Below are positions 4,887 to 54,050 of a DNA stretch of 64,000 nt, piece by piece. Source of the DNA: an uncultured Dehalococcoidia bacterium (GTDB taxonomy: Bacteria > Chloroflexota > Dehalococcoidia > Lucifugimonadales > UBA3495); assembly GCA_958295765.1 (NCBI GenBank), contig CATQHB010000002.1, forward strand, positions 2,032,091 to 2,096,090, read 5' to 3'. The position numbers and the translations under genes were made by a program. Positions within the stretch are counted from its first letter, which is position 1; each line of letters starts with the position of its first letter. A model generated the notes under the pieces. The model had not been told where the DNA came from and did not search any database. It worked only from the letters and a program-made list of their open reading frames with translations.

Positions 4887-7676
4887 ATGGCCCAGGCTCA
4901 AGACGCTACGCTGCCCCTGTTCCGCCCCACGGAAGCGCAGCCTTTATTGCTGCTGATGGACGGCCATGCTATGGTGCATCGCTCCTTCCGGGCCATCTCC
5001 ACCCAGCGCCATCTCACCGTCTCGGCCACCGGAGAGGATGTTACCGGGGTGTACGGCTTTGCCAACGTCTTTCTGCGGGCCTTGCAGGACTGGCAGCCCA
5101 CCCATTGCGCCATTGCCTTTGACACGCCGGCGCCCACCTTCCGCCACCAGCGTTTTGAGGCGTACAAGGCGCAGCGGGAGTCGGCGCCGCCGGAGTTGCG
5201 CCCGCAGTTCGGGCGGGCCAAAGAGTTGATGCGAGCCTTTGGCGTCCCGGTTTACGAAATTGACGGCTACGAGGCCGACGATGTCATCGGAACCCTGTGC
5301 CGCCAGGCCGAGGAGGCCGGCCTGAACGCCGTAATCCTGACCGGCGACCGGGATACCTTTCAGTTGATTTCCCCCCAGGTGCGGGTTGACCTGTCTTACA
5401 GCATCCAGGAGCGGAAGGTGTATGATGAGGCCGAGTTAGCCGCCCGGTATGGCGGCCTCACCGCCGCCCAGCAGCCGGATTTCAAGTCTCTGTTGGGCGA
5501 TTCCTCCGACAACATCCCCGGCGTCCCCAAAATCGGGCAGAAGCGCGCTGTGGGCCTGCTCAACGACTACCATGACTTGGAGGGCATCTACCAACACCTG
5601 GACGAGGTGAAACCGCCCAGCGTCCGCCAGTCCCTCAGCGAGAACAAGGAACTGGCCTTTGCCAACCGCATCCTGACCACCATCTCCCGGGACGCCCCGG
5701 TGGAGTTGTCCCTGGACACCGCCCGCTATGGCCGGTTCGACCGGCAGCAGGTAGTCAGCCTGCTTACCGAGTTGGAGTTTTTCAGCATCATCCCCCGGCT
5801 GCCGGCGCCTACCCTGGAAATGGCCGGGGAAACGGCCGGTGGCGCCGGCGCGTCGGAAACGCCGGCCGCCAACGCTGCCGCCCCGACCGACTATGTAACC
5901 GTGCAGACCGAGGCACAACTGGAGGAAATGCTGGCCGCCCTCCGCGCGGCGGGCAGCTTTGCCTTTGACACCGAAACTACCAGCGTTGACCCCATGCGGG
6001 CCGAACTGGTGGGCCTGAGCTTTGCCACCGAACCGGGCCGGGCCTGGTACGTTCCCGTGGGGCATCAGGAAGGGGCGCAACTGCCCCTGGAGCCGACCCT
6101 GGCCCAAATCAAGGCCCTGATGGAAGACCCGGACTTAGCCAAGTGCGCCCACAACGCCAACTTTGACCTGATGATGCTGGCTAACTACGGCATCAACTCC
6201 CGCAACGTCAACTTCGACACGATGATTGCCGCCCACCTCTTGAGCAAGAACAACCTGGGGTTGAAGCAACTGGCCCTGGACTTGCTCGGCGTGGAGATGA
6301 CCCCCATCAAAGACCTGATCGGCTCCGGCAAGCGGCAAAAGACCTTTGACCAGGTGCCGGTGGAAGACGCCGCCCCCTACGCTGCCGCCGACGCCGATAT
6401 GACCGGACGCCTGCTGCCCCCCCTCCGCAACCAGGTTGAGCAGCAGGGGTTGGGGAACTTGCTGGCCGAACTGGAGATGCCCCTGACCCCCATCCTGGTC
6501 AATATGCAGCGCCAGGGCATCAAGCTGGACGTGGGGATGCTGCACGAAATGGCCCGGGACTTGAACGGCCAATTGCAGCAGTCCGAGTTGGACCTGTACG
6601 ATTCCATCGGCCATACGGTCAACATCAACTCGCCTCAGCAACTCAGCGACCTGCTGTTTCAGGAGTTGGGCCTGCCCAAGACCAAGCGCACCAAGACCGG
6701 CTATTCCACCGACGCCAACTCCCTGGAAGGGTTGAAGGCTTTTCACCCGGTAGTGGACAAAATTCTGGAGTACCGGCAAATCGCCAAGCTGAAGTCCACC
6801 TACGTGGACTCCCTGCCGGAAATGATTAACCCCCGCACCGGGCGGATTCACACCAGCTATAACCAGGTGGGTTCGGCCACCGGGCGGATGTCCAGCAGCG
6901 ACCCCAACTTGCAGAACATCCCCATCCGCACCGAGTTGGGGCGGCAGATACGGAAAGCCTTTATCGCCGAGGATGCGCCGGAGTGGGCGCTCTTTTCCGC
7001 CGACTATTCCCAGATTGAACTGCGGGTGCTGGCCCATCTCTCCCAAGACCCGGCCCTGCTGGAAGCCTTCCGCCGGGGCGAGGACATTCACGCCTCCACC
7101 GCCGCGCTGATGAACAACGTACCCATCAACGAGGTCAATTCGGAACAGCGGCGCATCGCCAAGGTATTGAACTTCGGGGTCATCTACGGCCTGTCGGCCC
7201 ACGGCATTTCCCAGCAGACCGGGTTCAGCCGGGAGGAGGGGGCCAGGTTTATTGAGACCTACTTCAACCAGTACCCGGGCATTTCCGGCTACCTGGAAGG
7301 GGTCAAGGCCCAGACCCGGCAGACCCAGTACGTGGAGACGCTGCTGGGCCGCCGCCGCTACGTGCCGGGAATCAGCGCCGCCAACTTCAACGAGCGCAAC
7401 GCCGCCGAGCGGATGGCGATAAATATGCCGGTGCAGGGCACCGCCGCCGACATTATGAAGCTGGCAATGATTCGGGTACACGACCGGCTGGCACGGGAAA
7501 ACCTGCGGGCGCGGATGCTGCTCCAGGTTCACGACGAACTGGTCTTTGAGGTGCCCAAAGAGGAAATGCCGGCCCTGCAAGCCCTGGTCTTTGACGAAAT
7601 GCCGGCCGCCATGGACCTGGACGTTACCCTGAAAGTGGACGCCAAATGGGGCGAAACCTGGGGGGATATGGAGTAG
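4887..7676 (+). CDS. polA: DNA polymerase I
   Basis: 5'-3' exonuclease N-terminus (LLLMDGHAMVHRSF, SDNIPGVPKIGQKRA), 3'-5' exo-like domain (FAFDTETTS), and Pol A motifs (DYSQIELRVLAH, QVHDELVFE). I prefer ATG 4887 because a TATAAT box (4826-4831) lies inside the GTG-4806 extension. Confidence 0.95.
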   Translation: MAQAQDATLPLFRPTEAQPLLLLMDGHAMVHRSFRAISTQRHLTVSATGEDVTGVYGFANVFLRALQDWQPTHCAIAFDTPAPTFRHQRFEAYKAQRESAPPELRPQFGRAKELMRAFGVPVYEIDGYEADDVIGTLCRQAEEAGLNAVILTGDRDTFQLISPQVRVDLSYSIQERKVYDEAELAARYGGLTAAQQPDFKSLLGDSSDNIPGVPKIGQKRAVGLLNDYHDLEGIYQHLDEVKPPSVRQSLSENKELAFANRILTTISRDAPVELSLDTARYGRFDRQQVVSLLTELEFFSIIPRLPAPTLEMAGETAGGAGASETPAANAAAPTDYVTVQTEAQLEEMLAALRAAGSFAFDTETTSVDPMRAELVGLSFATEPGRAWYVPVGHQEGAQLPLEPTLAQIKALMEDPDLAKCAHNANFDLMMLANYGINSRNVNFDTMIAAHLLSKNNLGLKQLALDLLGVEMTPIKDLIGSGKRQKTFDQVPVEDAAPYAAADADMTGRLLPPLRNQVEQQGLGNLLAELEMPLTPILVNMQRQGIKLDVGMLHEMARDLNGQLQQSELDLYDSIGHTVNINSPQQLSDLLFQELGLPKTKRTKTGYSTDANSLEGLKAFHPVVDKILEYRQIAKLKSTYVDSLPEMINPRTGRIHTSYNQVGSATGRMSSSDPNLQNIPIRTELGRQIRKAFIAEDAPEWALFSADYSQIELRVLAHLSQDPALLEAFRRGEDIHASTAALMNNVPINEVNSEQRRIAKVLNFGVIYGLSAHGISQQTGFSREEGARFIETYFNQYPGISGYLEGVKAQTRQTQYVETLLGRRRYVPGISAANFNERNAAERMAINMPVQGTAADIMKLAMIRVHDRLARENLRARMLLQVHDELVFEVPKEEMPALQALVFDEMPAAMDLDVTLKVDAKWGETWGDME

Positions 7677-43569: not shown

Positions 43570-44502
43570 CTAACTACCCTCGGCGTACTTGCCGGTTAGC
43601 TGGGGCGTGGTTCCTTCCAAGCCCTGGTCCATCCGGTCCAGGCGGGTTTCCCTGGCCCAGGTGCGCTTCAGGTCGTCCCGGAAGTTGAGGTGAAGGTTGC
43701 CCAGGCCCTCCACTTCCAGGTCAATCACGTCGCCGTCCATCAGGGAGCTGAGGCCCCGGTGATTGGTGCCGGTGGCTACGATGTCGCCCGGCTCCAGGGG
43801 GTGGATGGAGGTAACCCACTCCATAATCCGGGGAATCTGGTGGGCCATGTCGCTGGTGTTGTAGTTCTGCTTCACCTCGCCGTTGACCGACAGCCTTACC
43901 TGGCGGTTCAGGGGGTCGGTGAACTCGTCGGCGGTAACCACCCAGGGGCCGGTGGGCGCAAAGGTGGCCCGGGACTTCATCTGGTAGAAGGTGTTGCCCG
44001 GCGGCAGCACGCCCCGCGCCGACCCGTCAATGAAGTTCAGGTAGCCAAAGATATAGTCATAGGCGTCCTCCGGCTTCACGTTCTCGGCCCGCTTGCCGAT
44101 GACGAAGGCCATTTCCGCCTCGAACTCAAAGATGGTGGCCGGGATGTCCGGCAGATTTACCGTGTCGTCGGGGCCGATGATGCAGTGGGGGGACTTGAGG
44201 AAGGCGTTAATCGGGGCCGGTTCGTCCCGGGTGCCGTCCTCCATATAGTTGACCGCCATGCAGACGATGGTGTAGGGCTTGGGCAGGGGCGGGCGCAGTT
44301 GCACCGAGCTGAGGTCCACGCCGCTCTCCGCGTTGACCACCGCCTCGATGTTGCCCTGGTGGTCGCTCCAACCCTCAATCACCCGGTTAATCAGGTCCTG
44401 GGGCGACGTATGGGGGACGCTGCTCACGGCGGCGGAAACGTCCACCACCGCATCGCCCTTGACTACGCCCAACTTGAAATCGTCAAAGAAAACCAGCTTC
44501 AT
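43570..44502 (-). CDS. Fumarylacetoacetate hydrolase (FAH)-family protein
   Basis: 310 aa. IVCMAVNY..., FEFEAEMAFVIGK and GDIVATGT patterns of the FAH/HpcE family. Confidence 0.85.
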   Translation of the reverse strand: MKLVFFDDFKLGVVKGDAVVDVSAAVSSVPHTSPQDLINRVIEGWSDHQGNIEAVVNAESGVDLSSVQLRPPLPKPYTIVCMAVNYMEDGTRDEPAPINAFLKSPHCIIGPDDTVNLPDIPATIFEFEAEMAFVIGKRAENVKPEDAYDYIFGYLNFIDGSARGVLPPGNTFYQMKSRATFAPTGPWVVTADEFTDPLNRQVRLSVNGEVKQNYNTSDMAHQIPRIMEWVTSIHPLEPGDIVATGTNHRGLSSLMDGDVIDLEVEGLGNLHLNFRDDLKRTWARETRLDRMDQGLEGTTPQLTGKYAEGS

Positions 44503-44608
44503 ATCTACCTCTCTTGAATCAGGTCTTGAAACGGATTGCCGCCGGGCTGCGCCGGCCGGCGCTACGCCGGTTCGGGGCCGGCGCCGGGGTTCAGGTTAGA
44601 CCAGCGCG

Positions 44609-44998
44609 CTAGACCAGCACGCCAAACCCGGACACGGTGCAAAGCTCAATGCGGTTGCCGTCCAGGTCATTGATGTAGAACGCCTGCTGCCCGTCGTTGC
44701 GGGTCTGGATTTCCGTGGCCTCAATGCCCCGGCCGGTCAGATGCTCCCGGGCCGCCGCCAGGTCGTCCACCTCAAAGGCGGTGTGGTGCGACGGGGCGGA
44801 GGGCGCCTCCGGGTTCTCGATTATGTGAACCATGGCGCCGCTGGGCAGTTGCAGCCAATAGAGATGGTCGCTGTTGACCATCTTGGGAATCTGCTTCAGC
44901 CCCAGGATGTCCTCATACCACTTGAGGGCGGCGTCCTTGTCCTTCACGTTGTAAGTTATGTGGTTGATGTTCTTGAGCCTGATGTGGTCAGCAAGCAT
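44609..44998 (-). CDS. VOC-family protein (glyoxalase/bleomycin-resistance/dioxygenase fold)
   Basis: 129 aa. INHITYNVKD, HHTAFEVDD and LDGNRIEL metal-ligand pattern. Confidence 0.8.
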   Translation of the reverse strand: MLADHIRLKNINHITYNVKDKDAALKWYEDILGLKQIPKMVNSDHLYWLQLPSGAMVHIIENPEAPSAPSHHTAFEVDDLAAAREHLTGRGIEATEIQTRNDGQQAFYINDLDGNRIELCTVSGFGVLV

Positions 44999-45118
44999 CG
45001 CTGCCTCCTTTTCCGGTTTTGTTCCGCTTTTGACTGGCTGGCCCTATGATACCAGATGATACCAGCATTTGCCGGGTTCACCAAATAATTGGCCGGATTC
45101 CGGGATAATCGCGCTTAA

Positions 45119-45238
45119 CCCGCCATTCCGGCAAAGGCCGGCATCCGGAACGCTCGGTAGCCGGCCCGCTCTTTTCCGGGGGATTTCCTGGATTCCGACT
45201 TTCGCCGGAACGACGGTGGCTTGCGCCGGAACGACGGT
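45119..45238. repeat. Family C repeat (degenerate inverted pair with duplicated tail)
   Basis: CCTGGATTCCGACTTTCGCCGGAACGACGGTGGCTTGCGCCGGAACGACGGTGG. Confidence 0.8.
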
Positions 45239-45260
45239 GGCTTGGGTTGCCATAGTGGGC

Positions 45261-46256
45261 CTAGATACCCAGCACCCGCTCCAGGTTTTTCCACAGGATG
45301 GCTTCCTTTTCCTCCTGGGTCAGGCTTTGCAGGCCGTTGACCCACTCCACCGGGGAGTCAATGCCCATGTCATAGGGCCAGTCGCTGCCCAGAAAGATGC
45401 GGTCGATGCCGGCCGAGTCAATCATATAGCGCAGCACCGCCTCGCTGTGGGTGAGGCAGTCATAGTAAACCTTGTTGAGGTAGCTGGTGGGCGGCTGCAC
45501 TCCGTTGGCGCGGGCCTCGGAACGCACCTGCCAGCCCCGATCCATCCGGCCGGCGCCGAAACAGGCAAACCCGCCGCCATGGGCCAAGCAGACCTTCAAG
45601 TCCGGGAACCGGTCCAGCACCCCGCCAAAGACCAGGGTGGCAAAGGTAACCGCCCGGTCGGCCAGGTTGCCGATGGAGTTGTCGATACCGTAGCCCTTGG
45701 TGTCCCGGGGCGCGACAATGGTATCGTCCCCTTCCTGGTGAAAGAAAATCAGCGCGCCCAACTGCTCTACCGACTGCCAGAAGGGGGTAAAGTCCGGGTG
45801 ATCCAGGGTCTTGTTGTTCACGTGGTCGCTGATTTGCGCCCCCTTGAGGCCCAGTTGATTCACCGCCCGGTCCAGCTCGGCGATAGCGGCGTTCACGTCC
45901 TGCATCGGCAGGGTAGCCATACCGGAAAACCGGGCCGGATTGCTCCGGGCCAACTCGGCCACGTAGTCATTGCAGTCCCGGGCGATGGCGGCCCCCACTT
46001 CGGCCGGCAGGTCATAGTTATACAGGCCGACCCAGGTGGTCAGGACGTGAACGTCCACCCCCAGGGAGTCCATCTCGGCGATGCGCTGCTCCGGGGTCAG
46101 CGTATATTTGGGGTGCAGCCACTGGCGTTTGCCCTCCTGCACCAGAAACTGGCGCCCGTTGGCCTCCTGGCGGGTAAAGCCGTGCCACTGCTGGCCTTCC
46201 GGCAAATTAGCCGCCACCGCCGGGGCAATGTGGGCGTGGATGTCGATACTGCGCAT
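45261..46256 (-). CDS. Amidohydrolase-2 family (ACMSD/LigW-type decarboxylase or hydratase), paralog 1
   Basis: Start set at MRSIDIHAH (ATG with AGGAG upstream). The track ORF's 94-aa N-terminal extension is repeat-encoded. Has the HxH, HGGG and SDWP metal-ligand pattern. Confidence 0.85.
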   Translation of the reverse strand: MRSIDIHAHIAPAVAANLPEGQQWHGFTRQEANGRQFLVQEGKRQWLHPKYTLTPEQRIAEMDSLGVDVHVLTTWVGLYNYDLPAEVGAAIARDCNDYVAELARSNPARFSGMATLPMQDVNAAIAELDRAVNQLGLKGAQISDHVNNKTLDHPDFTPFWQSVEQLGALIFFHQEGDDTIVAPRDTKGYGIDNSIGNLADRAVTFATLVFGGVLDRFPDLKVCLAHGGGFACFGAGRMDRGWQVRSEARANGVQPPTSYLNKVYYDCLTHSEAVLRYMIDSAGIDRIFLGSDWPYDMGIDSPVEWVNGLQSLTQEEKEAILWKNLERVLGI

Positions 46257-46580
46257 ATTCAAGCTCCTGATTTTGGTTAAGCCGGGTGGTGGTTCGACAA
46301 GCTCACCATGAGCGGGTTGAGTATTCAAGCTCCTGATTCTGGTTAAGCCGGGTGGTGGTTCGACAAGCTCACCATGAGCGGACTGCGTAACCGCAAGCGG
46401 ACGGAGTAACTGCTGCGGACTAGGTAACTGCGAGCGGATTGGGCAACTGCCGGGGGAACACTCCAACCGGCAAGTCCCACCCCCGCCGCTCACCATGAGC
46501 GGATTGAGCAACTGCCGGGGGAACGCTCCAACCGCCAAGCCCCCCCGCCGCTCACCCTGAGCTTGTCGAAGGGTCTCAAA
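46257..46580. repeat. Local tandem duplications containing family A arms
   Basis: A ~66-bp unit ATTCAAGCTCCTGATT.TGGTTAAGCCGGGTGGTGGTTCGACAAGCTCACCATGAGCGG occurs at 46257 and 46323. A second ~65-bp unit (GAGCGGATTG.GCAACTGCCGGGGGAAC.CTCCAACCG) is duplicated near 46430 and 46497. Confidence 0.85.
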
Positions 46581-46586
46581 GGATCC

Positions 46587-47549
46587 TTAAATACCCAGCA
46601 AATTCTCCAGGTTCTTGCCCAGGATTGCCTCTTTCTCCGTTTGCGTCAGGCTTTCCAGGCCCAGCACCCAGGCTACCGGCCAGTCGGTGCACATATCAAA
46701 GGGCCAGTCGGTACCGAACAGCACCTTGTCGATGCCCACCGAGTCAATGAGCATCCGCAGGGCCGGCTCGCTGTGGGTCAGGCAGTCATAGTAGAACCGG
46801 TTAAGGTAAGTGCTGGGCGGCTGGGCGATGTTGGCCCGCGCCTCGGAGCGCACCTGCCAGCCCCGATCCATCCGGCCGGCGCCAAAGCAGGTATAGCCGC
46901 CGCCGTGGCACAGGCAAATCCGCAGGTCGGGGTACTTGTCCATCACCCCGCCGAACACAAAGGAGGCGAAGGTGATGGCCCGGTCGGCCAGGTTACCGAT
47001 GCTGTTGGGCAGGTGGTAGCGGTTCAGCCGGGCCGAAACTACGGTTTCCAGCGCCTGGTGAATCAGGATGACCGCCCCGGTCTGCTCGGCCACCTCCCAC
47101 AGGGGATAGAACTCCGGGTCGTCGTAAGTCTTGCCGTTCACCTGGTCATCAATCATCGCCCCTTTCAGGCCCAATTGAGTCATCGCCCGCTCCAGTTCGG
47201 CGGCGGCGGCGCCCACGTCCTGCATCGGCAGATTAGCCAGCCCCGCAAAGCGGGCCGGGTGGTCTTGCGTAAGCTGGGCCACGTAGTCGTTGCACTCCCG
47301 GTCCATCGCGGCGACGGTGGCGGCGTCCCGGTCATAGCAGTAGAAAACGGCGTTGGTGGAAAGGACGTGCACGTCCACGCCCAGCGAGTCCATATCGGTC
47401 AACCGCTGCTCCGGCGTCCACATCGTCCGGGGGACGCTCAAGTGAAAGTCATTGGCAAAGGCGGTAATGCCGTACCAGTCCTCCCCGGCCTCCAGGGCGC
47501 GAATATAACCCTCCGGGCTGATGTGGGCGTGAATGTCGATAGATTTCAT
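46587..47549 (-). CDS. Amidohydrolase-2 family, paralog 2
   Basis: MKSIDIHAHISPEG... 320 aa. The C-terminal half is nearly identical to the other paralogs. Confidence 0.88.
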   Translation of the reverse strand: MKSIDIHAHISPEGYIRALEAGEDWYGITAFANDFHLSVPRTMWTPEQRLTDMDSLGVDVHVLSTNAVFYCYDRDAATVAAMDRECNDYVAQLTQDHPARFAGLANLPMQDVGAAAAELERAMTQLGLKGAMIDDQVNGKTYDDPEFYPLWEVAEQTGAVILIHQALETVVSARLNRYHLPNSIGNLADRAITFASFVFGGVMDKYPDLRICLCHGGGYTCFGAGRMDRGWQVRSEARANIAQPPSTYLNRFYYDCLTHSEPALRMLIDSVGIDKVLFGTDWPFDMCTDWPVAWVLGLESLTQTEKEAILGKNLENLLGI

Positions 47550-47604
47550 TGGGTTGCTGCTCCTTGCTTTCTAGGTTTCGGCGGTGGGGTGGAAAGGGAG
47601 TCAT

Positions 47605-47808
47605 TTACGGGTTGCATAGTCCACACAGGTGGACATTCAACCCCGCCTCCTCAGCCGCTTCGATTGCCTCTTGCTTGGTATCAATAGGCCCAAGCCAATC
47701 GCCGTCCTGGGCCTGCTTATCTTGGGGTTGGCACCTTGGGTCGCTACTGATGAAAGTATGGATTGTTGCCCGCTTGGTTGGCTTATCCACGTTGACGCAG
47801 AAACTCAT
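47605..47808 (-). CDS. Small 4-Cys hypothetical protein
   Basis: 67 aa. Strong AAGGAGG 7 nt before the ATG. Cys at positions 4, 26, 62 and 65 (C-terminal CGLC). Lower GC. 36 nt downstream of the MTase-HNH gene. Confidence 0.55.
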   Translation of the reverse strand: MSFCVNVDKPTKRATIHTFISSDPRCQPQDKQAQDGDWLGPIDTKQEAIEAAEEAGLNVHLCGLCNP

Positions 47809-47844
47809 TTGACAACCTCCTTGTAACTGTAATGGGTGTATGCC

Positions 47845-49257
47845 CTACCGCCTGCGCCGGCGGCTACTCCGGCCGGCCGCCCGGCCCATACGCAGGTTGC
47901 TTTCGTTCCGCATATACCCGCTGGCTCGGTTATGGTCCTGCAAGCCAATCAGGGTGAATCGGTCCCGCTTTTCCTTGTTGCAGGGCGGGCATAGCAGGGT
48001 AAGGTTATCGTAGGCATCCGTTCCGCCTTGAGAGCGGGGATTGATATGGTCAACTTCCAGAACGCGGGTATCAAAGTTGTAATCCGCCCCGCAGCCCTGG
48101 CAGAAGGGGCCAATGTCCACCAGCAACCGGCCGTGCTGGGTACGTGGCGCCGGGTAGCGCTGGCCGCCCCTACCCGTTGGCGTGCGTAAAACCAATGTCG
48201 CCGTTTCTCCGCTGTCGGTACGCTGGGGCGGCGTGGTGGAGTAGCTAATATCGCCAAAGGTCAACGCTTGCTGCCCCCCGCGCTTGGGGCGACTCTCGAC
48301 GGCCAACCCCTCAGTTTCCAGGCGGTCAAGAACGATTTGGTACGCCTGATCCCAAATGTCCATTCCCACCCATTGACGCCCCAACCGCTCGGCGGCGATG
48401 GGCGTGGTGGCGCAACCACAAAAGGGGTCAAGGACTAAATCACCAGGGTTGCTACTGGCTTGGATGATGCGCTCATAAAGGGCCAATGGCTTCTGCGTGG
48501 GGAATCTGGTATTTTCTCGTTGGTTCGTTAAGGCAGCAATGCCTACCCACCAATCCTCTGGAACCTTGCCTTCCCCAAACCGTTCCTCAACCTCATCATC
48601 GTTGCGTCGCCCGGTATTTTCAACGGATGGGGCTATGATGCTCCTTTGGCCTTCAGCCCTACCTCTCCTTGCAAGCGTCTCATCATTGTAGGGAATTCGT
48701 ACAGCATCTCTACTGAATTGGGTTTGGTCAGATTTGGCGTAGAACAGAATGGTATCGTGCTTTCGGGGGAACCAACGCCGCGTGTTACTTGGTCCGGTAT
48801 AGGCCCAAACGATTTCGTTTCTGAAGTTACGCCGGCCAAAGATAGCGTCCAGCAGGCACTTGGCCCAAGCGTGGGCCGTATGGTCAATGTGCAGGTAAAG
48901 GCTCCCGTCATCCCGCAATATCCGGTGCATTTCCAGCAGACGGACGCCCAGCCAGCACAGGAACGCCCCCATATCATCGCCCCATACTTCCTTTGCCGTA
49001 GTAATGACACGATAGACTTCCGGCTCATCCCGCATTAAGGAAATAAGCCAATCATCGTGAATGTCATCCTGCCAACTCCAGCGGTCCTGGAAGGATGCGC
49101 CACTGGCAAGACTGTCGGGGGTAGCGTGGAAATCCCGGGACTTGTTAAACGGCGGGTCGGTGGCGATAAGGTTGACCGTCCCGGAGTTCATACCCCGCAG
49201 AAAGTCCAGGTTATCCCCGTGATACAGCGTCCGGTTGGCAAAATTGCGTTCCGCCAT
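47845..49257 (-). CDS. Beta-class N6/N4 DNA methyltransferase fused to a C-terminal HNH nuclease domain
   Basis: Motif IV IATDPPF lies N-terminal to motif I LVLDPFCGCATTPIAA (beta permutation). The C-terminus reads CQGCG...EVDHINPRSQGGTDAYDNLTLLCPPCNKEK (HNH with CxxC pairs). Start set at MAERNF (M18 of the track ORF). Confidence 0.8.
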   Translation of the reverse strand: MAERNFANRTLYHGDNLDFLRGMNSGTVNLIATDPPFNKSRDFHATPDSLASGASFQDRWSWQDDIHDDWLISLMRDEPEVYRVITTAKEVWGDDMGAFLCWLGVRLLEMHRILRDDGSLYLHIDHTAHAWAKCLLDAIFGRRNFRNEIVWAYTGPSNTRRWFPRKHDTILFYAKSDQTQFSRDAVRIPYNDETLARRGRAEGQRSIIAPSVENTGRRNDDEVEERFGEGKVPEDWWVGIAALTNQRENTRFPTQKPLALYERIIQASSNPGDLVLDPFCGCATTPIAAERLGRQWVGMDIWDQAYQIVLDRLETEGLAVESRPKRGGQQALTFGDISYSTTPPQRTDSGETATLVLRTPTGRGGQRYPAPRTQHGRLLVDIGPFCQGCGADYNFDTRVLEVDHINPRSQGGTDAYDNLTLLCPPCNKEKRDRFTLIGLQDHNRASGYMRNESNLRMGRAAGRSSRRRRR

Positions 49258-49439
49258 AACTTTCCCCTTTAGGCCGGTGGCTGCCGGTATAGTAATATGC
49301 CTAAACACTAAAGTAAATGAGCCAGCGTCACCACCGGGTAAGGCAGCCGTCCCCCTACAACCCCAACATCTTCTCCAAGTTCGTGACCGTGCTTTAGATA
49401 TTTGACAAGCAGGGGCATTTCCGACCTCGGCTTACGGAC

Positions 49440-49592
49440 CTACTTTTTCTTCTCGCACTCGGAGCATAGGGGTAGATACTGGTAACAGTCACATTGACAA
49501 AGATTGTCAATGTTGCCAATGTGGTAGCAGTCTCGATAGATATGGTTCTTGTTGTCGCTCTCGTGCATCGCCGAATGGAATTTGTTCTGCAT
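49440..49592 (-). CDS. Small Cys/His-rich hypothetical protein (50 aa)
   Basis: MQNKFHSAMHESDNKNHIYRDCYHIGNIDNLCQCDCYQYLPLCSECEKKK. AAGGAG lies 5 nt before the ATG. It sits in the most AT-rich coding-like segment of the locus. Confidence 0.4.
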   Translation of the reverse strand: MQNKFHSAMHESDNKNHIYRDCYHIGNIDNLCQCDCYQYLPLCSECEKKK

Positions 49593-49644
49593 AATTTCTC
49601 CTTTACTTCTTGATATGTTGGCAAAGCTGTACGGGCAGTTTACT

Positions 49645-49718
49645 CCGCTCATGGTGAGCTTGTCGAACCACCGGCCCGTGTCCTGCGGGACATCCTTCGA
49701 CCGGCTCAGGATGAGCGG
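49645..49718. repeat. Family A hairpin
   Basis: CCGCTCATGGTGAGCTTGTCGAACCAC ... CCTTCGACCGGCTCAGGATGAGCGG. Confidence 0.9.
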
Positions 49719-49758
49719 AGCGGGTAACTCGCACGGCTTTGCAACTGCCCGGCGGGAC

Positions 49759-50715
49759 TTACAGCCCCAACATCTTCTCCAGGTTCTTCCACAAAATGGC
49801 TTCCTTTTCGGCCAGGGTCAGGCTTTCCAGACCCATAACCCAGGACACCGGCCAGTCAATCCGCATATCGGCCGGCCAGTCGGTGCCCAGCACTACCCGG
49901 TCGATGCCCACCGAGTCAATCAGCATCCGCAGGGCCGGTTCGCTGTGGGTCAGGCAGTCATAGTAGAACTTGTTCAGGTAGGCGCTGGGCGGTTGGCCGA
50001 TGTTCACCCGCGCCTCGGAACGCACCTGCCAGCCCCGATCCATCCGGCCAATGCCAAAGCAGGCGTAGCCGCCGCCGTGGGCCAGGCACACCTTCAAGTC
50101 GGGGAACTTGTCCATTACCCCGCCAAAGGTGAAGGCGGCGAAGGTAACTACCCGGTCGGTCGGGTTGCCGATGGTGTTGCGGACGTGGTAGCGGGGCTGG
50201 CGCTGGGAGCCGATGGTCTGGCCGCCCTGGTGGATAAAAATCAGCGCGCCCATCTGCTCCGCCGCCTGCCAGATGGGAAAGAACTCCGGCTCGTCAAAGG
50301 TCTTGCCGTTCACCTGGTCGCCAATCATCGCGCCCTTGAACCCCAACTGACTGACCGCCCGCTCCAGTTCGGCGATGGCGGCCCCGGCGTCCTGCATCGG
50401 GATGGTCGCCAGGCCGGCCAGCCGTTCCGGGTAGTCCATGGTCATCTGGTAGATTTCGTCGTTGCAGTCCCGGGCGATGGCGGCGGTAACCGCCGGGTCT
50501 TTGTCGTACTGGTAAAACCCGGCGTTGGTGGAAACTACCTGGATGTCCACCCCCAGCGAGTCCATATCGGCGATGCGCTGCTCCGGCGTCCAGGCGTTGC
50601 GGGGATTGAACAGTTCCCCGTCGGCGGTGGTCATACCGTGCCAGTCCTGGCCGGCCAGCACCGCCCGCTGAAAACATTGGGGCGTAGAGTGGGCGTGAAC
50701 GTCTATACTTCGCAT
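49759..50715 (-). CDS. Amidohydrolase-2 family, paralog 3
   Basis: MRSIDVHAHSTPQC... 318 aa with the same ligand pattern. Confidence 0.88.
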   Translation of the reverse strand: MRSIDVHAHSTPQCFQRAVLAGQDWHGMTTADGELFNPRNAWTPEQRIADMDSLGVDIQVVSTNAGFYQYDKDPAVTAAIARDCNDEIYQMTMDYPERLAGLATIPMQDAGAAIAELERAVSQLGFKGAMIGDQVNGKTFDEPEFFPIWQAAEQMGALIFIHQGGQTIGSQRQPRYHVRNTIGNPTDRVVTFAAFTFGGVMDKFPDLKVCLAHGGGYACFGIGRMDRGWQVRSEARVNIGQPPSAYLNKFYYDCLTHSEPALRMLIDSVGIDRVVLGTDWPADMRIDWPVSWVMGLESLTLAEKEAILWKNLEKMLGL

Positions 50716-50768
50716 TGGTCTCCTTTTCCTTTAATGATGTGGCATAACTTGATGGTAAGGCGTAATCC

Positions 50769-51175
50769 CTGCTCATTTTGAGCTTGTCGAAGGACGGGTA
50801 GGGCGTAACCCCCGCTCATCCTGAGCTTGTCGAAGGACGGGTAGGGCGCAACTCCCGCTCATCCTGAGCCTGTCGAAGGACGGGTAGGGCACAACCCCCG
50901 CTCATGGTGAGCTTGTCGAAGGACGGGTAGGGCGCAACCCCCGCTCATCCTGAGCCTGTCGAAGGACGGGTAGGGCGCAACCCCCGCTCATCCTGAGCCT
51001 GTCGAAGGACGGGTAGGGCGCAACCCCCGCTCATCCTGAGCCTGTCGAAGGACGGGTAGGGCGCAACCCCCGCTCATCCTGAGCTTGTCGAAGGACGGGA
51101 TGGTTCGACAAGCTCACCATGAGCGGCCAGAAGCTCACCATGAGCGGACTGGTTCGACAAGCTCACCATGAGCGA
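50769..51175. repeat. 43-bp minisatellite (about 8 direct copies of one family A arm plus linker) capped by three opposite-type arms
   Basis: The unit CCGCTCATCCTGAGCCTGTCGAAGGACGGGTAGGGCGCAACCC starts at 50812, 50855, 50898, 50941, 50984, 51027 and 51070, with a degenerate first copy at ~50769. It is followed by TGGTTCGACAAGCTCACCATGAGCG arms at 51100-51175. Confidence 0.95.
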
Positions 51176-51199
51176 TACGAGGCCCTGGGGGCAACAGGG

Positions 51200-52156
51200 C
51201 TAGATGCCCAAAAGCCGCTCCATATTCTTGTAGAGGATGGCTTCCTTTTCCCCCATAGTCAGGCTTTCCAGGCCGAGAATCCAGGACACCGGCCAGTCAA
51301 TCGCCATATCGGCCGGCCAGTCGGTGCCGAAAATTACCTTGTCAATCCCCACGGTATCTATGAGCATCCGCAGGGCCGGTTCGCTGTGGGTCAGGCAGTC
51401 GTAGTAGAACTTGTCCAGGTAGGCGCTGGGCGGCTGGGCGATGTTGACCCGGGCCTCGGAGCGTACCTGCCAGCCCCGGTCCATCCGCCCGGCGCCAAAG
51501 CAGGTATAGCCGCCGCCGTGACACAGGCAGACCCGCAGGTCGGGGCAGGCGTCCATCACCCCACCAAAGACAAAGGAGGCAAAGGTAACGGCCCGGTCCA
51601 CCAAGTTGCCGATGGTGTTGTGCAGGTGGTAGCGGGGGTTCCGGTCCCGTACCAGGGTTCGGCCCCCCTGCTGATGCACCAGCAGCACCGCGCCCATCTG
51701 CTCCGCCGCCTTCCACAGGGGCATAAACTCCGGGTCATCGTAGGTCTTGCCGTTCACGTGGTCGTCAATCATGGCGCCCACAAAGCCAAGCTGATTGACG
51801 GTGCGGTCCAGCTCGGCAATCGCCAGCCCCACGTCCTGCATCGGGATAATCGCCATACCCTTGAACCGGTCGGGATAGTCCACCGTCATCTGATAGACCT
51901 CATCGTTACATTCCCGGTGCATCGCGGAAATAACCTGGGCGTCCCGCTCGTAGTAGTAGTAAAAGCTGAAGGTGGAAACGACGTGAACGTCCACCCCCAG
52001 GGAGTCCATATCGTCGATGCGCTGCTCCGGCGTCCAGGAGTTGCGGGGGCCGACGCGCATTTCGCCGGGCTTGACGCCGTGCCACTCCCGGCCCTCCCGC
52101 ATGGCCTGGATAAAACACTGGGGCGTCAGGTGAGCGTGAATATCTATGCTTCGCAA
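51200..52156 (-). CDS. Amidohydrolase-2 family, paralog 4
   Basis: Start set at the TTG (LRSIDIHAH) 6 nt after GGAGGTG, giving 318 aa like the paralogs. The track ORF extends 64 codons further upstream. Confidence 0.85.
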   Translation of the reverse strand: MRSIDIHAHLTPQCFIQAMREGREWHGVKPGEMRVGPRNSWTPEQRIDDMDSLGVDVHVVSTFSFYYYYERDAQVISAMHRECNDEVYQMTVDYPDRFKGMAIIPMQDVGLAIAELDRTVNQLGFVGAMIDDHVNGKTYDDPEFMPLWKAAEQMGAVLLVHQQGGRTLVRDRNPRYHLHNTIGNLVDRAVTFASFVFGGVMDACPDLRVCLCHGGGYTCFGAGRMDRGWQVRSEARVNIAQPPSAYLDKFYYDCLTHSEPALRMLIDTVGIDKVIFGTDWPADMAIDWPVSWILGLESLTMGEKEAILYKNMERLLGI

Positions 52157-52199
52157 GGTTGCCACCTCCAGGTTAAATGTTTTAGCGGCAGGGAAGCCG

Positions 52200-52994
52200 T
52201 CAGCTTTCCCCTTGACGCCGCCGCAGTTCCTCTTCCAGTTGGCGTACCCGGGCCTCGGCCCGCTGCCGGGCTTCCCGCTCGGCGCGCAGGGCCTCCCGCT
52301 CGGCTTGTAAAGCCGCTTCCCGATCACGCAAGGCTGCTTCCCGGTCAAACAATGCTTCCTCAGAGTCCGCCAGGTTGCGGAGGTAAGTGCTACTGGCCGG
52401 GTCGTAAAAGTAAAACCATTCCCTTTCCCAGCATAGGTACAGGTCCAACAGCGGACTGTACGACTTCAGGATACCGTCGGGTTCCGTGCTCAGCGGGAAT
52501 CGCTGATACTGGCCCTCTACCAGTTCTTCCCCTACCAACGGCTCCCCGTAGTATTCGCCCCCGGTTACGTCCAGCCGCCAATACTCCCTTACCCCGATTT
52601 GGGCGTAGATTCCCCGCTTCCTTCCAAAGTCCTCCCGCCCCGTGCTTTCCGACCCCACCTCCAACACCAGGTCCGGCGGCTTGCCCACTTCCCAGGGCAG
52701 GTATATCTTCCGCCGCCGAATTGCCTCTACGTCCACCCCCAGGGCCAGGTAGCAGTCGGGCATTACCCGCCGGTTCAGGTTGGCCGGGTCATAGCAGACG
52801 ATGGTGTTGCTGCCCAGGAAGTTCTCCCGGCTGCGTCCGCTCCCGGCGTAACGGGTGCTCAGTAGGGGCAGCAGTTCCTGTAGTATCGGGTCTTGATACA
52901 TCGAGTCCGGCAGCGGCTCCTTTTCGTCCGGGTTGTAGTCCAGGCTTGCGTAGTCGATTTCCGATACGTACCTGTAGGCCAGCTTGGTTGTCAT
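52200..52994 (-). CDS. Uma2-family (DUF820) putative endonuclease with a coiled-coil C-terminal extension
   Basis: PDxxL..G..E.....PDLVLEV.S pattern (VMPDCYLALG, PPDLVLEVGSEST, YAQIGVREYW) typical of Uma2. The C-terminus has REAALRDREAALQAEREALRAEREARQRAE heptad-like repeats. Confidence 0.7.
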   Translation of the reverse strand: MTTKLAYRYVSEIDYASLDYNPDEKEPLPDSMYQDPILQELLPLLSTRYAGSGRSRENFLGSNTIVCYDPANLNRRVMPDCYLALGVDVEAIRRRKIYLPWEVGKPPDLVLEVGSESTGREDFGRKRGIYAQIGVREYWRLDVTGGEYYGEPLVGEELVEGQYQRFPLSTEPDGILKSYSPLLDLYLCWEREWFYFYDPASSTYLRNLADSEEALFDREAALRDREAALQAEREALRAEREARQRAEARVRQLEEELRRRQGES

Positions 52995-53096
52995 TCCGCG
53001 CCTCCTGACGTTTCTGACCGCTTCGGGTTAATCCGGTTCCCGGCGCCTCGCCACCAATCCACCGCTGGACGGAGCCGGCGCCAACCGTGGTTACCT

Positions 53097-54050
53097 TTAA
53101 CCGTCAACCCCCAGCAGTTTCTCCATATTCTTCCACAGGATGGCTTCCTTCTCATCCTGGGTCAGGCTCTCCAGGCCCAACACCCAGGCCACCGGCCAGT
53201 CGATAGCCATATCAAAGGGCCAGTCGGTGCCGAACACCACCTTGTCGATGCCCGCCAGGTCAATGAGCATCCGCAGGGCCGTTTCGCTGTGGGTCAGGCA
53301 GTCATAGTAGAAACGGCTCAGGTAGGCGCTGGGCGGTTGGGGGATTTGCGGCAGGCGACCCACGTCCCAACTGCGGTCCATCCGGCCCACGCCGTAACAG
53401 GCGTAGCCGCCGCCGTGCGCCAGGCAGACTTTCAGGTCGGGGCAGGCGTCCATCACGCCGCCCATCACGAAAGAGGCGAAGGTAACGGCCCGATCCACCA
53501 GATTGCCGACGCTGTTGGGCAGGTGGTAGTCGCTGGTGCGGGGCCGTACCAGCGTCCCGCCGCCCTGGTGGATAAAGATGACGGCGCCCAGTTGCTCAGC
53601 AGCCTTCCACAGGGGCAGAAACTCCGGCTCGTCAAAGGTCTTGCCGTTCACCTTGTCGTCAATCATCGCCCCAATCAGGCCCAGTTCATTGACCGACCGC
53701 TCCAGTTCGGCAATCGCCAGGCCCACGTCCTGCATGGGAATCTGGGCAAAGCCCCGGAACCGCTCCGGGTAGTCCAGGGTCATCTGACGCACCTCGTCGT
53801 TGCACTCCCGGTGCATCGTGGCAATGGTCTGGGCCTCCCGGCCATAGAAGTAGAACTGGGCGCCGGTGGAGACCACCTGCACGTCCACGCCCAGGGAATT
53901 CATATCCTGGATGCGCTGTTCCGGCGTCCATTCCAGTTCCGGCTCAATATCCAGCGGACGGGGTTCCAGGCTGTGCCATTCCCGACCTTCCTTCATTGCC
54001 TGGATAAAAGCCTGGGGTGTTACGTGGGCATGAATATCTATACTACGCAC
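53097..54050 (-). CDS. Amidohydrolase-2 family, paralog 5
   Basis: MRSIDIHAHVTPQA... 317 aa. GTG start 5 nt after GGGAGG. Confidence 0.88.
   Translation of the reverse strand: MRSIDIHAHVTPQAFIQAMKEGREWHSLEPRPLDIEPELEWTPEQRIQDMNSLGVDVQVVSTGAQFYFYGREAQTIATMHRECNDEVRQMTLDYPERFRGFAQIPMQDVGLAIAELERSVNELGLIGAMIDDKVNGKTFDEPEFLPLWKAAEQLGAVIFIHQGGGTLVRPRTSDYHLPNSVGNLVDRAVTFASFVMGGVMDACPDLKVCLAHGGGYACYGVGRMDRSWDVGRLPQIPQPPSAYLSRFYYDCLTHSETALRMLIDLAGIDKVVFGTDWPFDMAIDWPVAWVLGLESLTQDEKEAILWKNMEKLLGVDG

Follow-up and report, generated by a model that had tools for sequence, protein, structure and literature searches.

A candidate single-chain restriction-modification enzyme joining a beta-class methyltransferase to an HNH nuclease at a variable locus of a Dehalococcoidia genome

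Within a 64,000-nucleotide stretch of the genome of an uncultured Dehalococcoidia bacterium (contig CATQHB010000002.1 of assembly GCA_958295765.1, positions 2,032,091 to 2,096,090; hereinafter the window), a gene encoding a fusion of a beta-class DNA methyltransferase (MTase) with an HNH nuclease is located between two paralogous amidohydrolase genes. We propose, with a probability of about 0.58, that this 470-aa protein is an autonomous single-chain restriction-modification (RM) enzyme that follows the logic of Type IIC/IIG systems, with methylation, cleavage and the coupling of the two activities all predicted from sequence. This reading is preferred because the combination of a single chain, two conserved catalytic centers, an exchangeable recognition segment, the lack of a partner gene and the presence of multiple copies in several phyla matches the Type IIG pattern. 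An initial annotation of the same DNA had perceived a module of three genes, in which the fusion was accompanied by two small Cys-bearing open reading frames (ORFs); the present analysis upholds the fusion and its atypical architecture but not the module.

Domain architecture and the variable recognition segment

The fusion gene and the principal features of its product are the following:

47845-49257, minus strand: fusion ORF, 470-aa beta-class MTase::HNH protein (Pfam PF01555 and PF01844), stand-alone gene
48331-49176, minus strand: N6_N4_Mtase domain (PF01555), aa 29-310, Pfam E-value 1.8e-44
49147-49158, minus strand: motif IV DPPF, aa 35-38, kept in 120/120 homologs
near aa 276-286, minus strand: motif I VLDPFCGCATT (FCGCATT at aa 280-286), DPF[CA]GCATT in 119/120 homologs
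48511-48813, minus strand: putative target-recognition segment, about aa 150-250, hypervariable, between motifs IV-VIII and motif I
47959-48102, minus strand: HNH core (CQGC ... DH ... N ... CPPCN; PF01844), aa 387-434, Pfam E-value 3.3e-13, with an Arg-rich tail after the core

The ORF is intact and, counted from the ATG, encodes 470 aa, the 471 aa of the initial annotation including one extra codon; an alternative, GTG-extended reading comprises 487 aa. The union of a beta-class MTase with a C-terminal HNH domain, which that annotation had deduced from motifs, was recovered by Pfam searches with both expected families, and the order of motifs, with DPPF preceding FCGCATT, is that of beta-class N6/N4 MTases, in which the recognition domain lies between the two motifs. 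The closest sequence and fold matches of the MTase part in the PDB are the beta-class N6-methyladenine (m6A) MTases RsrI, MboIIA, BceJIV and CcrM. The FCGCATT variant of motif I (canonical F-x-G-S-G-T-T) aligns with the GSGTT of M.BceJIV and is family-wide, being found in 119 of the 120 homologs (here and below, the best 120 among at least 8000 protein matches). The presence of D-P-P-F rather than S-P-P-F as motif IV suggests N6-adenine methylation.

In an alignment of 26 sequences (A1), the HNH residues C387, C390, D404, H405, N419, C424, C427 and N428 are invariant, and the Cys pairs together with D-H, N and N are retained in essentially all of the 120 homologs, the misses of a regular-expression search being spacing variants and one frameshifted copy. 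By sequence, the domain displays the two CxxC pairs and the D-H ... N ... N pattern of beta-beta-alpha-metal HNH nucleases, and it scores against models or chains of IscB, Cas9d/Cas9 and McrA. No further domain is recognized in the C-terminal module of ~140 aa, which in 102 of the 120 closest homologs terminates with the Arg-rich tail GRAAGRSSRRRRR (window positions 47848-47890). In a second subfamily the C-terminal end is different and the linker-HNH module has diverged far more strongly (33-43% identity), so the C-terminal part exists in at least two versions.

The first 150 and the last 220 residues are highly conserved in alignment A1, where the stretch before motif I alone is packed with substitutions and indels. 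Against 53 parsed relatives, the median identity is 71% in the N-terminal block and 78% in the motif I block, compared with 45% in the middle segment, which is alignable in just 30 of the 53. At least 11 groups of this segment, the presumptive target recognition domain (TRD), were delineated among 43 proteins. Given that the catalytic motifs are kept and the segment is variable, both catalytic centers are under purifying selection, with the recognition part diversifying. Co-occurring strains carry three fusion alleles at one chromosomal site; relative to the window protein, the same-locus alleles L084 and L089 have an identity of 95-97% N-terminally and 89-90% C-terminally, but just 21-23% in the recognition segment. 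Because identity is this low in the segment and 89-97% elsewhere, the recognition cassette has been exchanged allelically at this locus. The absence of any other domain from the C-terminal ~140 aa, together with the confinement of variation to the segment inside the methylase, is indirect evidence that both activities may share a specificity module.

The proposed mechanism is as follows. The beta-class, probably N6-adenine, MTase would recognize a short DNA motif by means of the variable segment that separates motifs IV-VIII from motif I and would methylate this motif on the host DNA; it would also position the small C-terminal HNH domain, itself devoid of a recognition domain, such that DNA with unmethylated motifs is cut. 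Since a single HNH site cuts one strand, a double-strand break would require two molecules; beta-class relatives of solved structure function as dimers or oligomers and have several chains per crystal entry. Replacement of the recognition segment would alter the specificities of methylation and cleavage together, which would explain the free diversification of the family.

Alternatively, the protein could be an orphan MTase whose HNH part is not a restriction nuclease but a nickase or a DNA-binding module involved in repair, recombination or regulation. There is no separate restriction endonuclease (REase) nearby, a single HNH site nicks rather than cuts, and the LexA-box-like sequence GAACGTGTATTC upstream of a subgroup of fusion genes (L052, L059 and L063; see below) hints at damage-linked expression of some copies. 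However, regulatory orphans are typically constant in specificity, whereas the segment of the fusion is hypervariable and exchanged between co-occurring strains; the catalytic residues of the nuclease are invariant; and the multiple copies per genome and the inferred transfer across phyla (see below) are both typical of defense or selfish systems. An orphan MTase therefore appears quite unlikely, and single-chain restriction-modification remains the preferred interpretation of the conserved centers and the exchangeable segment.

Distribution and genomic contexts of the fusion family

The protein search yielded at least 8000 fusion homologs, with the same two-domain architecture in 119 of the best 120 (58-100% identity), and a scan of GTDB with one genome per species detected at least 589 fusion loci, of which the best 80 were used for the neighborhood analyses (81 loci for the clustering of flank families). 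The hosts of these 80 loci are metagenome-assembled genomes (MAGs) labeled Dehalococcoidia, Phototrophicaceae, Aggregatilineales, Candidatus Poribacteria, Acidimicrobiales, Arenicellales and Chromatiales; 11 genomes hold two or three of the loci each. Outside the recognition segment, a copy from Poribacteria is 64-74% identical to the window protein, and given such identity levels between phyla, the family appears to undergo horizontal transfer between Chloroflexota, Poribacteria and other MAGs, with multiple copies in many of the genomes. The mix of taxa and the bin names indicate that the host MAGs are probably associated with marine sponges, as Poribacteria largely are. The SB06xx bin series belongs among the sponge-associated Entoporibacteria (PMC7883664), and RM systems are enriched in sponge microbiomes (PMC5099237; PMC11410982).

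When the C-terminal 142 aa were searched exhaustively with HMMER, the distant representatives (31-59% identity) were again MTase-HNH fusions of 450-550 aa. The HNH module (50-59% identity) is also found at the N-terminus of proteins of 340-550 aa (P0145, P0149, P0153, P0161 and P0141) the remainder of which has no Pfam match, P0141 additionally having zinc-ribbon matches; these proteins could be distinct nucleases, restriction or modification-dependent, with the cleavage module in common.

Nucleotide similarity between the window and the 80 loci starts within 5 nt of the ATG and stops at the stop codon. The flanks of the fusion loci are unrelated except inside small subgroups, and the insertion contexts are diverse. 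All-against-all clustering of the flank ORFs revealed no family in more than 13 of the 81 loci, and the recurrent small flank clusters appear to be antisense or edge artefacts. As the initial annotation had stated, no REase, specificity subunit, integrase or transposase accompanies the fusion gene, and its neighborhoods show none of the co-occurrence expected of a multigene module: the fusion is a stand-alone gene without a fixed partner. Among the loci compared, no common target sequence was found at the insertion sites and no sequence is shared beyond the start and stop codons. Three copies (L058, L070 and L077) are apparently disrupted, judging from truncated or split reading frames.

A gene with these properties could be a selfish mobile unit of the size of an ORF, in which breaks made by the HNH domain promote its own insertion or retention, in a homing-like manner or through post-segregational killing, while the methylase protects the carrier and defense is at most a side effect. 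That the shared unit is exactly the ORF, without integrase, transposase or terminal repeats, that it occurs in many insertion contexts and in several copies per genome, and that decayed copies exist (the three above and a 69-nt HNH relic in locus L088, described below) are all in line with this scenario, one form of which, a self-protected homing cassette, was among the roles suggested in the initial annotation. However, homing endonucleases recognize one conserved target, and given that the insertion sites have no target sequence in common, the gene does not conform to classical homing into an empty cognate allele; furthermore, the 27-nt duplication at the window locus brackets the cassette with the 50-aa gene and not the fusion (see below). 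The selfish scenario also requires the same motif-directed methylation and cleavage chemistry as the single-chain RM reading, from which it differs mainly in the assumed beneficiary, and we consider it unlikely.

Another role suggested at the outset was that of a phage-derived moron, to which an anti-restriction methylase left by a prophage can be added. The region is AT-richer than its flanks, phages commonly encode MTase domains as well as HNH domains, and a single IMG/VR contig encodes a full-length relative with 39% identity. Nevertheless, none of the 50,697 records of a phage collection and none of the 72,556 records of a plasmid collection covers at least 80% of the fusion protein, no PHROG family spans both the MTase and the HNH domain, and the flanks consist of syntenic metabolic genes, with no phage genes. 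A phage origin of this kind is very improbable. Of the roles suggested in the initial annotation, a compact Type IIC-like RM system is the best fit for the fusion alone, without the small Cys proteins that had been made part of it.

Three of the related loci (L052, L059 and L063), including copies within one Dehalococcoidia genome, share the sequence GAACGTGTATTC ~55 nt upstream of the fusion ATG. This sequence resembles the Gram-positive-type LexA box (GAAC-N4-GTTC), with a background rate of 0.003 per 120 nt. The motif is limited to 3 of 53 loci and is not found upstream of the window fusion gene. A scan for promoters and terminators performed no better than on shuffled sequences, and Rfam gave no match in positions 44000-54000 of the window.

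The variable locus and the two small genes

The remaining features of the locus are the following:

46587-47549, minus strand: downstream flank, Amidohydro_2 paralog, core gene (Pfam E-value 4.3e-47)
47605-47808, minus strand: 67-aa ORF, Shine-Dalgarno (SD) sequence AAGGAGG 7 nt 5' of the ATG, small gene with unassigned function
49356-49382, minus strand: 27-nt relic duplicating the upstream amidohydrolase gene's 3' end, 93% identity with 49760-49786, repeat family D8
49440-49592, minus strand: 50-aa Cys/His-rich ORF, SD sequence AAAGGAG ahead of the ATG
49643-49720, no strand assigned: palindrome resembling repetitive extragenic palindromic (REP) elements (arms 49643-49667 and 49696-49720), inverted repeat I24, families D5 and D6, between the amidohydrolase gene and the 50-aa ORF
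49759-50715, minus strand: upstream flank, Amidohydro_2 paralog, core gene (Pfam E-value 5.1e-44), syntenic in sister genomes

Much of what the initial annotation had described holds: three ORFs, co-oriented on the minus strand, lie within the paralog array between two amidohydrolase genes, the region is AT-richer than its surroundings (GC content of 0.49-0.58 over 47400-49800 versus 0.60-0.65 in the flanks), and both small ORFs have strong SD sequences. The three ORFs are not chance occurrences, because the domain E-values are strong, the frames of the small ORFs are kept in five to six diverged alleles, and the AlphaFold model of the 67-aa protein is confident. The 50-aa ORF has a 70-aa, ATG-extended reading that enters the repeat element; in the sister genomes the other form is called, with 50 aa in L081-L084.

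Six syntenic loci (L081-L084, L088 and L089) come from one metagenome, ERZ19489113, the contigs of which, with names of the 'ptg' type, appear to be products of long-read assembly. Their flanking amidohydrolase genes show 91-97% nucleotide identity (97% for the syntenic counterparts of the gene at 46587-47549), and the content between these genes differs, as follows:

Window and L082: 50-aa gene, fusion, 67-aa gene
L083: 50-aa gene, fusion, 67-aa homolog that was not called
L081: 50-aa gene, fusion; window positions 47572-47835, with the 67-aa gene, have no counterpart
L084: fusion right after the amidohydrolase gene, then 50-aa gene, secreted trypsin-like protein, HTH_73 gene, 69-aa homolog
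L089: 106-aa ORF, fusion, 67-aa gene; 50-aa gene absent
L088: 105-aa and 190-aa ORFs, HTH_73 gene, 66-aa homolog; no fusion, just a 69-nt relic of its HNH core

Because the syntenic loci differ in this manner, the three genes are separable. The fusion is present or absent independently of both small genes. The 67-aa gene, which persists in L088, where the fusion is lost, and is missing from L081, where the fusion is kept, is part of the conserved right flank, immediately upstream of the amidohydrolase gene, and not of the fusion. The 50-aa gene is upstream of the fusion in the window, downstream of it in L084 and absent from L088 and L089, and sits on a movable cassette of ~182 nt. In L084 the fusion directly follows the genuine 3' end of the amidohydrolase gene, and the similarity to L081 begins exactly there (L084 position 3879 corresponds to L081 position 3877); the 27-nt copy of this 3' end in the window marks a rearrangement by which the repeat element and the 50-aa cassette came to lie upstream of the fusion. 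The 27-nt repeat was also considered as a target duplication of the fusion and rejected, as it brackets the 50-aa cassette instead.

These arrangements bear directly on the possibility that the 50-aa and 67-aa Cys-rich proteins are controller or sensor partners of the fusion. In the window the ORFs are co-oriented, closely spaced and preceded by strong SD sequences, both small ORFs appear to be real genes, and the 50-aa gene is located beside the fusion in five of the six fusion-carrying syntenic loci. However, the dissociations described above, namely the loss and retention of the 67-aa gene without regard to the fusion, and the change of side or the absence of the 50-aa gene, are at odds with a functional unit. 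Neither small ORF gave a significant tblastn match in the 80 related loci, and profile searches with hmmsearch --max found neither in these loci or in three viral loci, so that, in what the initial annotation had itself named as grounds for abandoning the module, fusion homologs routinely occur alone. (A tblastn match of the 67-aa protein in L055, just 3' of the fusion, had an E-value of 1.1 and was not confirmed by the profile search.) Among 5.8 billion proteins, each small ORF is represented by just three clusters, each of which derives from large contigs of this one lineage. The small ORFs have no match in Pfam, NCBIfam, PADLOC or PHROG, and because no Pfam family matches, no helix-turn-helix (HTH) was detected in them; a conserved small HTH gene beside the RM genes, the hallmark of Type II RM operons controlled by C proteins, is accordingly missing here, and a controller or sensor role finds no support in proteins that have no known domain and are uncoupled from the fusion. 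A three-gene module is extremely improbable: the small ORFs are unrelated to the fusion and share with it, by chance, a recombination hotspot of the amidohydrolase array, of which the apparent three-gene operon is an accident.

The small ORFs nevertheless appear to be real genes of lineage-specific distribution. Their frames and SD sequences are kept without indels in five to six diverged alleles, and the ratios of nonsynonymous to synonymous substitution rates (dN/dS) are mostly 0.15-0.6, with 0.15-0.87 for the 67-aa gene and 0.14-0.6 between diverged alleles of the 50-aa gene, the near-identical L081-L083 pairs having too few changes to judge. Between the window and L083, L084, L088 and L089, the 67-aa gene differs at ~40% of residues, with a synonymous divergence (dS) reaching about 1.0, which far exceeds the divergence of the neighboring amidohydrolase gene (nucleotide identity of 97%). 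Of the four Cys of the 67-aa protein that the initial annotation had emphasized, only C26, C62 and C65 are conserved in relatives, together with H17, whereas the 50-aa protein, correctly described as rich in Cys and His, keeps five Cys (C22, C32, C34, C43 and C46) and three His (H6, H10 and H17); these conserved residues suggest metal sites in both proteins. An AlphaFold 2 model of the 67-aa protein (mean predicted local distance difference test score, pLDDT, of 87.7) has a beta-beta-beta-alpha-beta topology, for which fold searches gave no significant match (best E-values of 0.83 in PDB and 0.15 in BFVD). A resemblance of this model to MbtH-like proteins (8gic_D, template modeling score of about 0.5) was rejected as not significant. 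An exact-sequence look-up found neither the small proteins of the window nor P0001 on record.

Several other features of the locus and its counterparts were observed. In L084 and L088 the 67-aa-type gene is divergently paired with the HTH_73 gene, which in L084 encodes 78 aa (7156-7392, on the opposite strand) in the same variable island as a 530-aa trypsin-like protein (5567-7159; Trypsin_2, E-value 2e-22) with an apparent N-terminal signal-like segment and a Pro/Thr-rich linker. On the minus strand of the window, at positions 43570-54050, at least five Amidohydro_2 paralogs with 70-80% mutual nucleotide identity are arrayed in tandem, and after them come a gene of the glyoxalase family (44609-44998) and one for an FAA hydrolase (43570-44502); the whole looks like an expanded catabolic operon, and the paralogous 3' ends probably drive local rearrangements. 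The palindrome at 49643-49720 recurs in other intergenic gaps of the array. REP-like elements, with TTCGACAAGCTCACCATGAGCGG and its complement as the core, occupy the gaps between paralogs at 50711-51140, 46256-46560, 49643-49720 and 45180-45240; among them are 65-66-nt and 21-nt repeats and 7-10 tandem copies of a unit with a 43-nt period, and they yield long spurious ORF extensions, such as the N-terminal part of a 425-aa reading at 45261-46538. A second presence/absence polymorphism involves a 95-aa GIY-YIG gene (Pfam E-value 1.6e-15) in a spacer between amidohydrolase paralogs of sister genomes (L081, 6504-6791; L083, 6760-7047; L088, 6393-6680; L089, 6387-6674), which corresponds to the window gap near 46250-46560, where the window and L082 hold repeat elements only. 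A Uma2-family gene, annotated as a putative restriction endonuclease (PF05685, E-value 2e-13), is located inside the array at 52200-52994 on the minus strand, and the sister loci have one or two Uma2-family genes at the same place.

Comparison with known systems and implications of the fusion family

The usual build of Type IIG enzymes comprises an N-terminal PD-(D/E)xK nuclease and a gamma-class (NPPY/F/W) MTase, with BtgZI, which combines an alpha-class MTase with a PD-(D/Q)xK variant, as the only cited exception (PMC4081073); the remark in the initial annotation that a beta-class MTase joined to an HNH nuclease is atypical among single-chain RM enzymes thus agrees with the literature. The fusion resembles Type IIC/IIG enzymes (MmeI, BpuSI and Eco57I, as well as the atypical BtgZI) in that nuclease and MTase reside in one polypeptide without a conserved partner gene, in the presumed use of one recognition module for both activities, and in the combination of a conserved framework with differing recognition parts, with allelic substitution of recognition domains and the possibility of several copies per genome (PMC4081073; PMC2853133). 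In Type IIG enzymes such as the MmeI family, restriction and modification share one specificity module, so that a joint change is safe and wide divergence is possible (PMC4081073), and allelic TRD substitution in Type IIG genes has been documented (PMC2853133). Unlike these enzymes, with their PD-(D/E)xK and gamma-class parts, the fusion consists of an N-terminal beta-class DPPF methylase, an internal recognition segment and a C-terminal HNH domain, has no sequence relationship to them beyond the generic MTase fold and is known from sequence alone.

Parts of the fusion have parallels elsewhere. The MboII system includes a beta-class m6A methylase, M.MboIIA, which is among the closest solved structures (1g60), and R.MboII is listed among the HNH-type restriction enzymes (PMC4081073), so MboII and the fusion share both catalytic chemistries; however, MboII consists of two proteins each with its own DNA recognition, whereas the fusion is one chain in which the HNH part (~140 aa) has no recognition domain. 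The Mod subunits of Type III systems (EcoP15I and Mbo45V Mod), represented among the PDB and PADLOC matches, are likewise of beta class with a central variable TRD between conserved blocks, but Type III systems require a separate Res helicase-nuclease subunit, which is not found near the fusion, whose nuclease is the fused HNH domain. The HNH domains of IscB, Cas9 and McrA have the same CxxC...DH...N...CxxCN core; IscB and Cas9 are targeted by guide RNA and McrA by a modified-DNA reader, whereas the only candidate targeting module of the fusion is its methylase. Literature searches for MTase-HNH fusions found no paper on an architecture that pairs a beta-class MTase with a C-terminal HNH domain, nor is this build mentioned in PMC4081073 or in a 2025 review. 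The logic is therefore known from Type IIC/IIG systems and the parts differ, and the large family is uncharacterized and apparently rich in specificities.

Several points weigh against the single-chain RM reading. The FCGCATT form of motif I is unusual compared with FxGSGTT, and the binding of S-adenosylmethionine is assumed; PADLOC and NCBIfam recognize just the separate domains; and literature searches found no published cleavage or methylation activity for any member of the family. A single-chain enzyme of this type would also have to spare hemimethylated DNA after replication, and nicking, mobility or another function could be the actual role of the HNH domain. Moreover, the family may already be in REBASE as a putative enzyme. 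The broader proposal that beta-class adenine MTases joined to HNH domains constitute a large class of single-chain RM enzymes with an exchangeable specificity cassette, spread horizontally across phyla in apparent marine-sponge microbiomes whose co-existing strains differ in the specificity allele at one locus, seems to us about evenly balanced. A bolder version would have the bare ORF as the mobile unit, moving by means of its own HNH cuts.

Should cleavage and methylation by the fusion both take place at a site that one exchangeable segment recognizes, the protein would represent a second, independently evolved solution of the Type IIG kind, constructed from other parts (a beta-class MTase and an HNH nuclease) in a compact format of ~470 aa, and the family, of which the window gene is one of thousands of members, could supply new specificities as well as nicking or cutting enzymes that can be re-targeted by a cassette swap. 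The fusion family may also account in part for the surplus of RM genes that has been reported for sponge symbionts. With three specificity alleles and one deletion at the same locus in one metagenome, the sister genomes would offer a natural experiment in the strain-level diversity of immunity.

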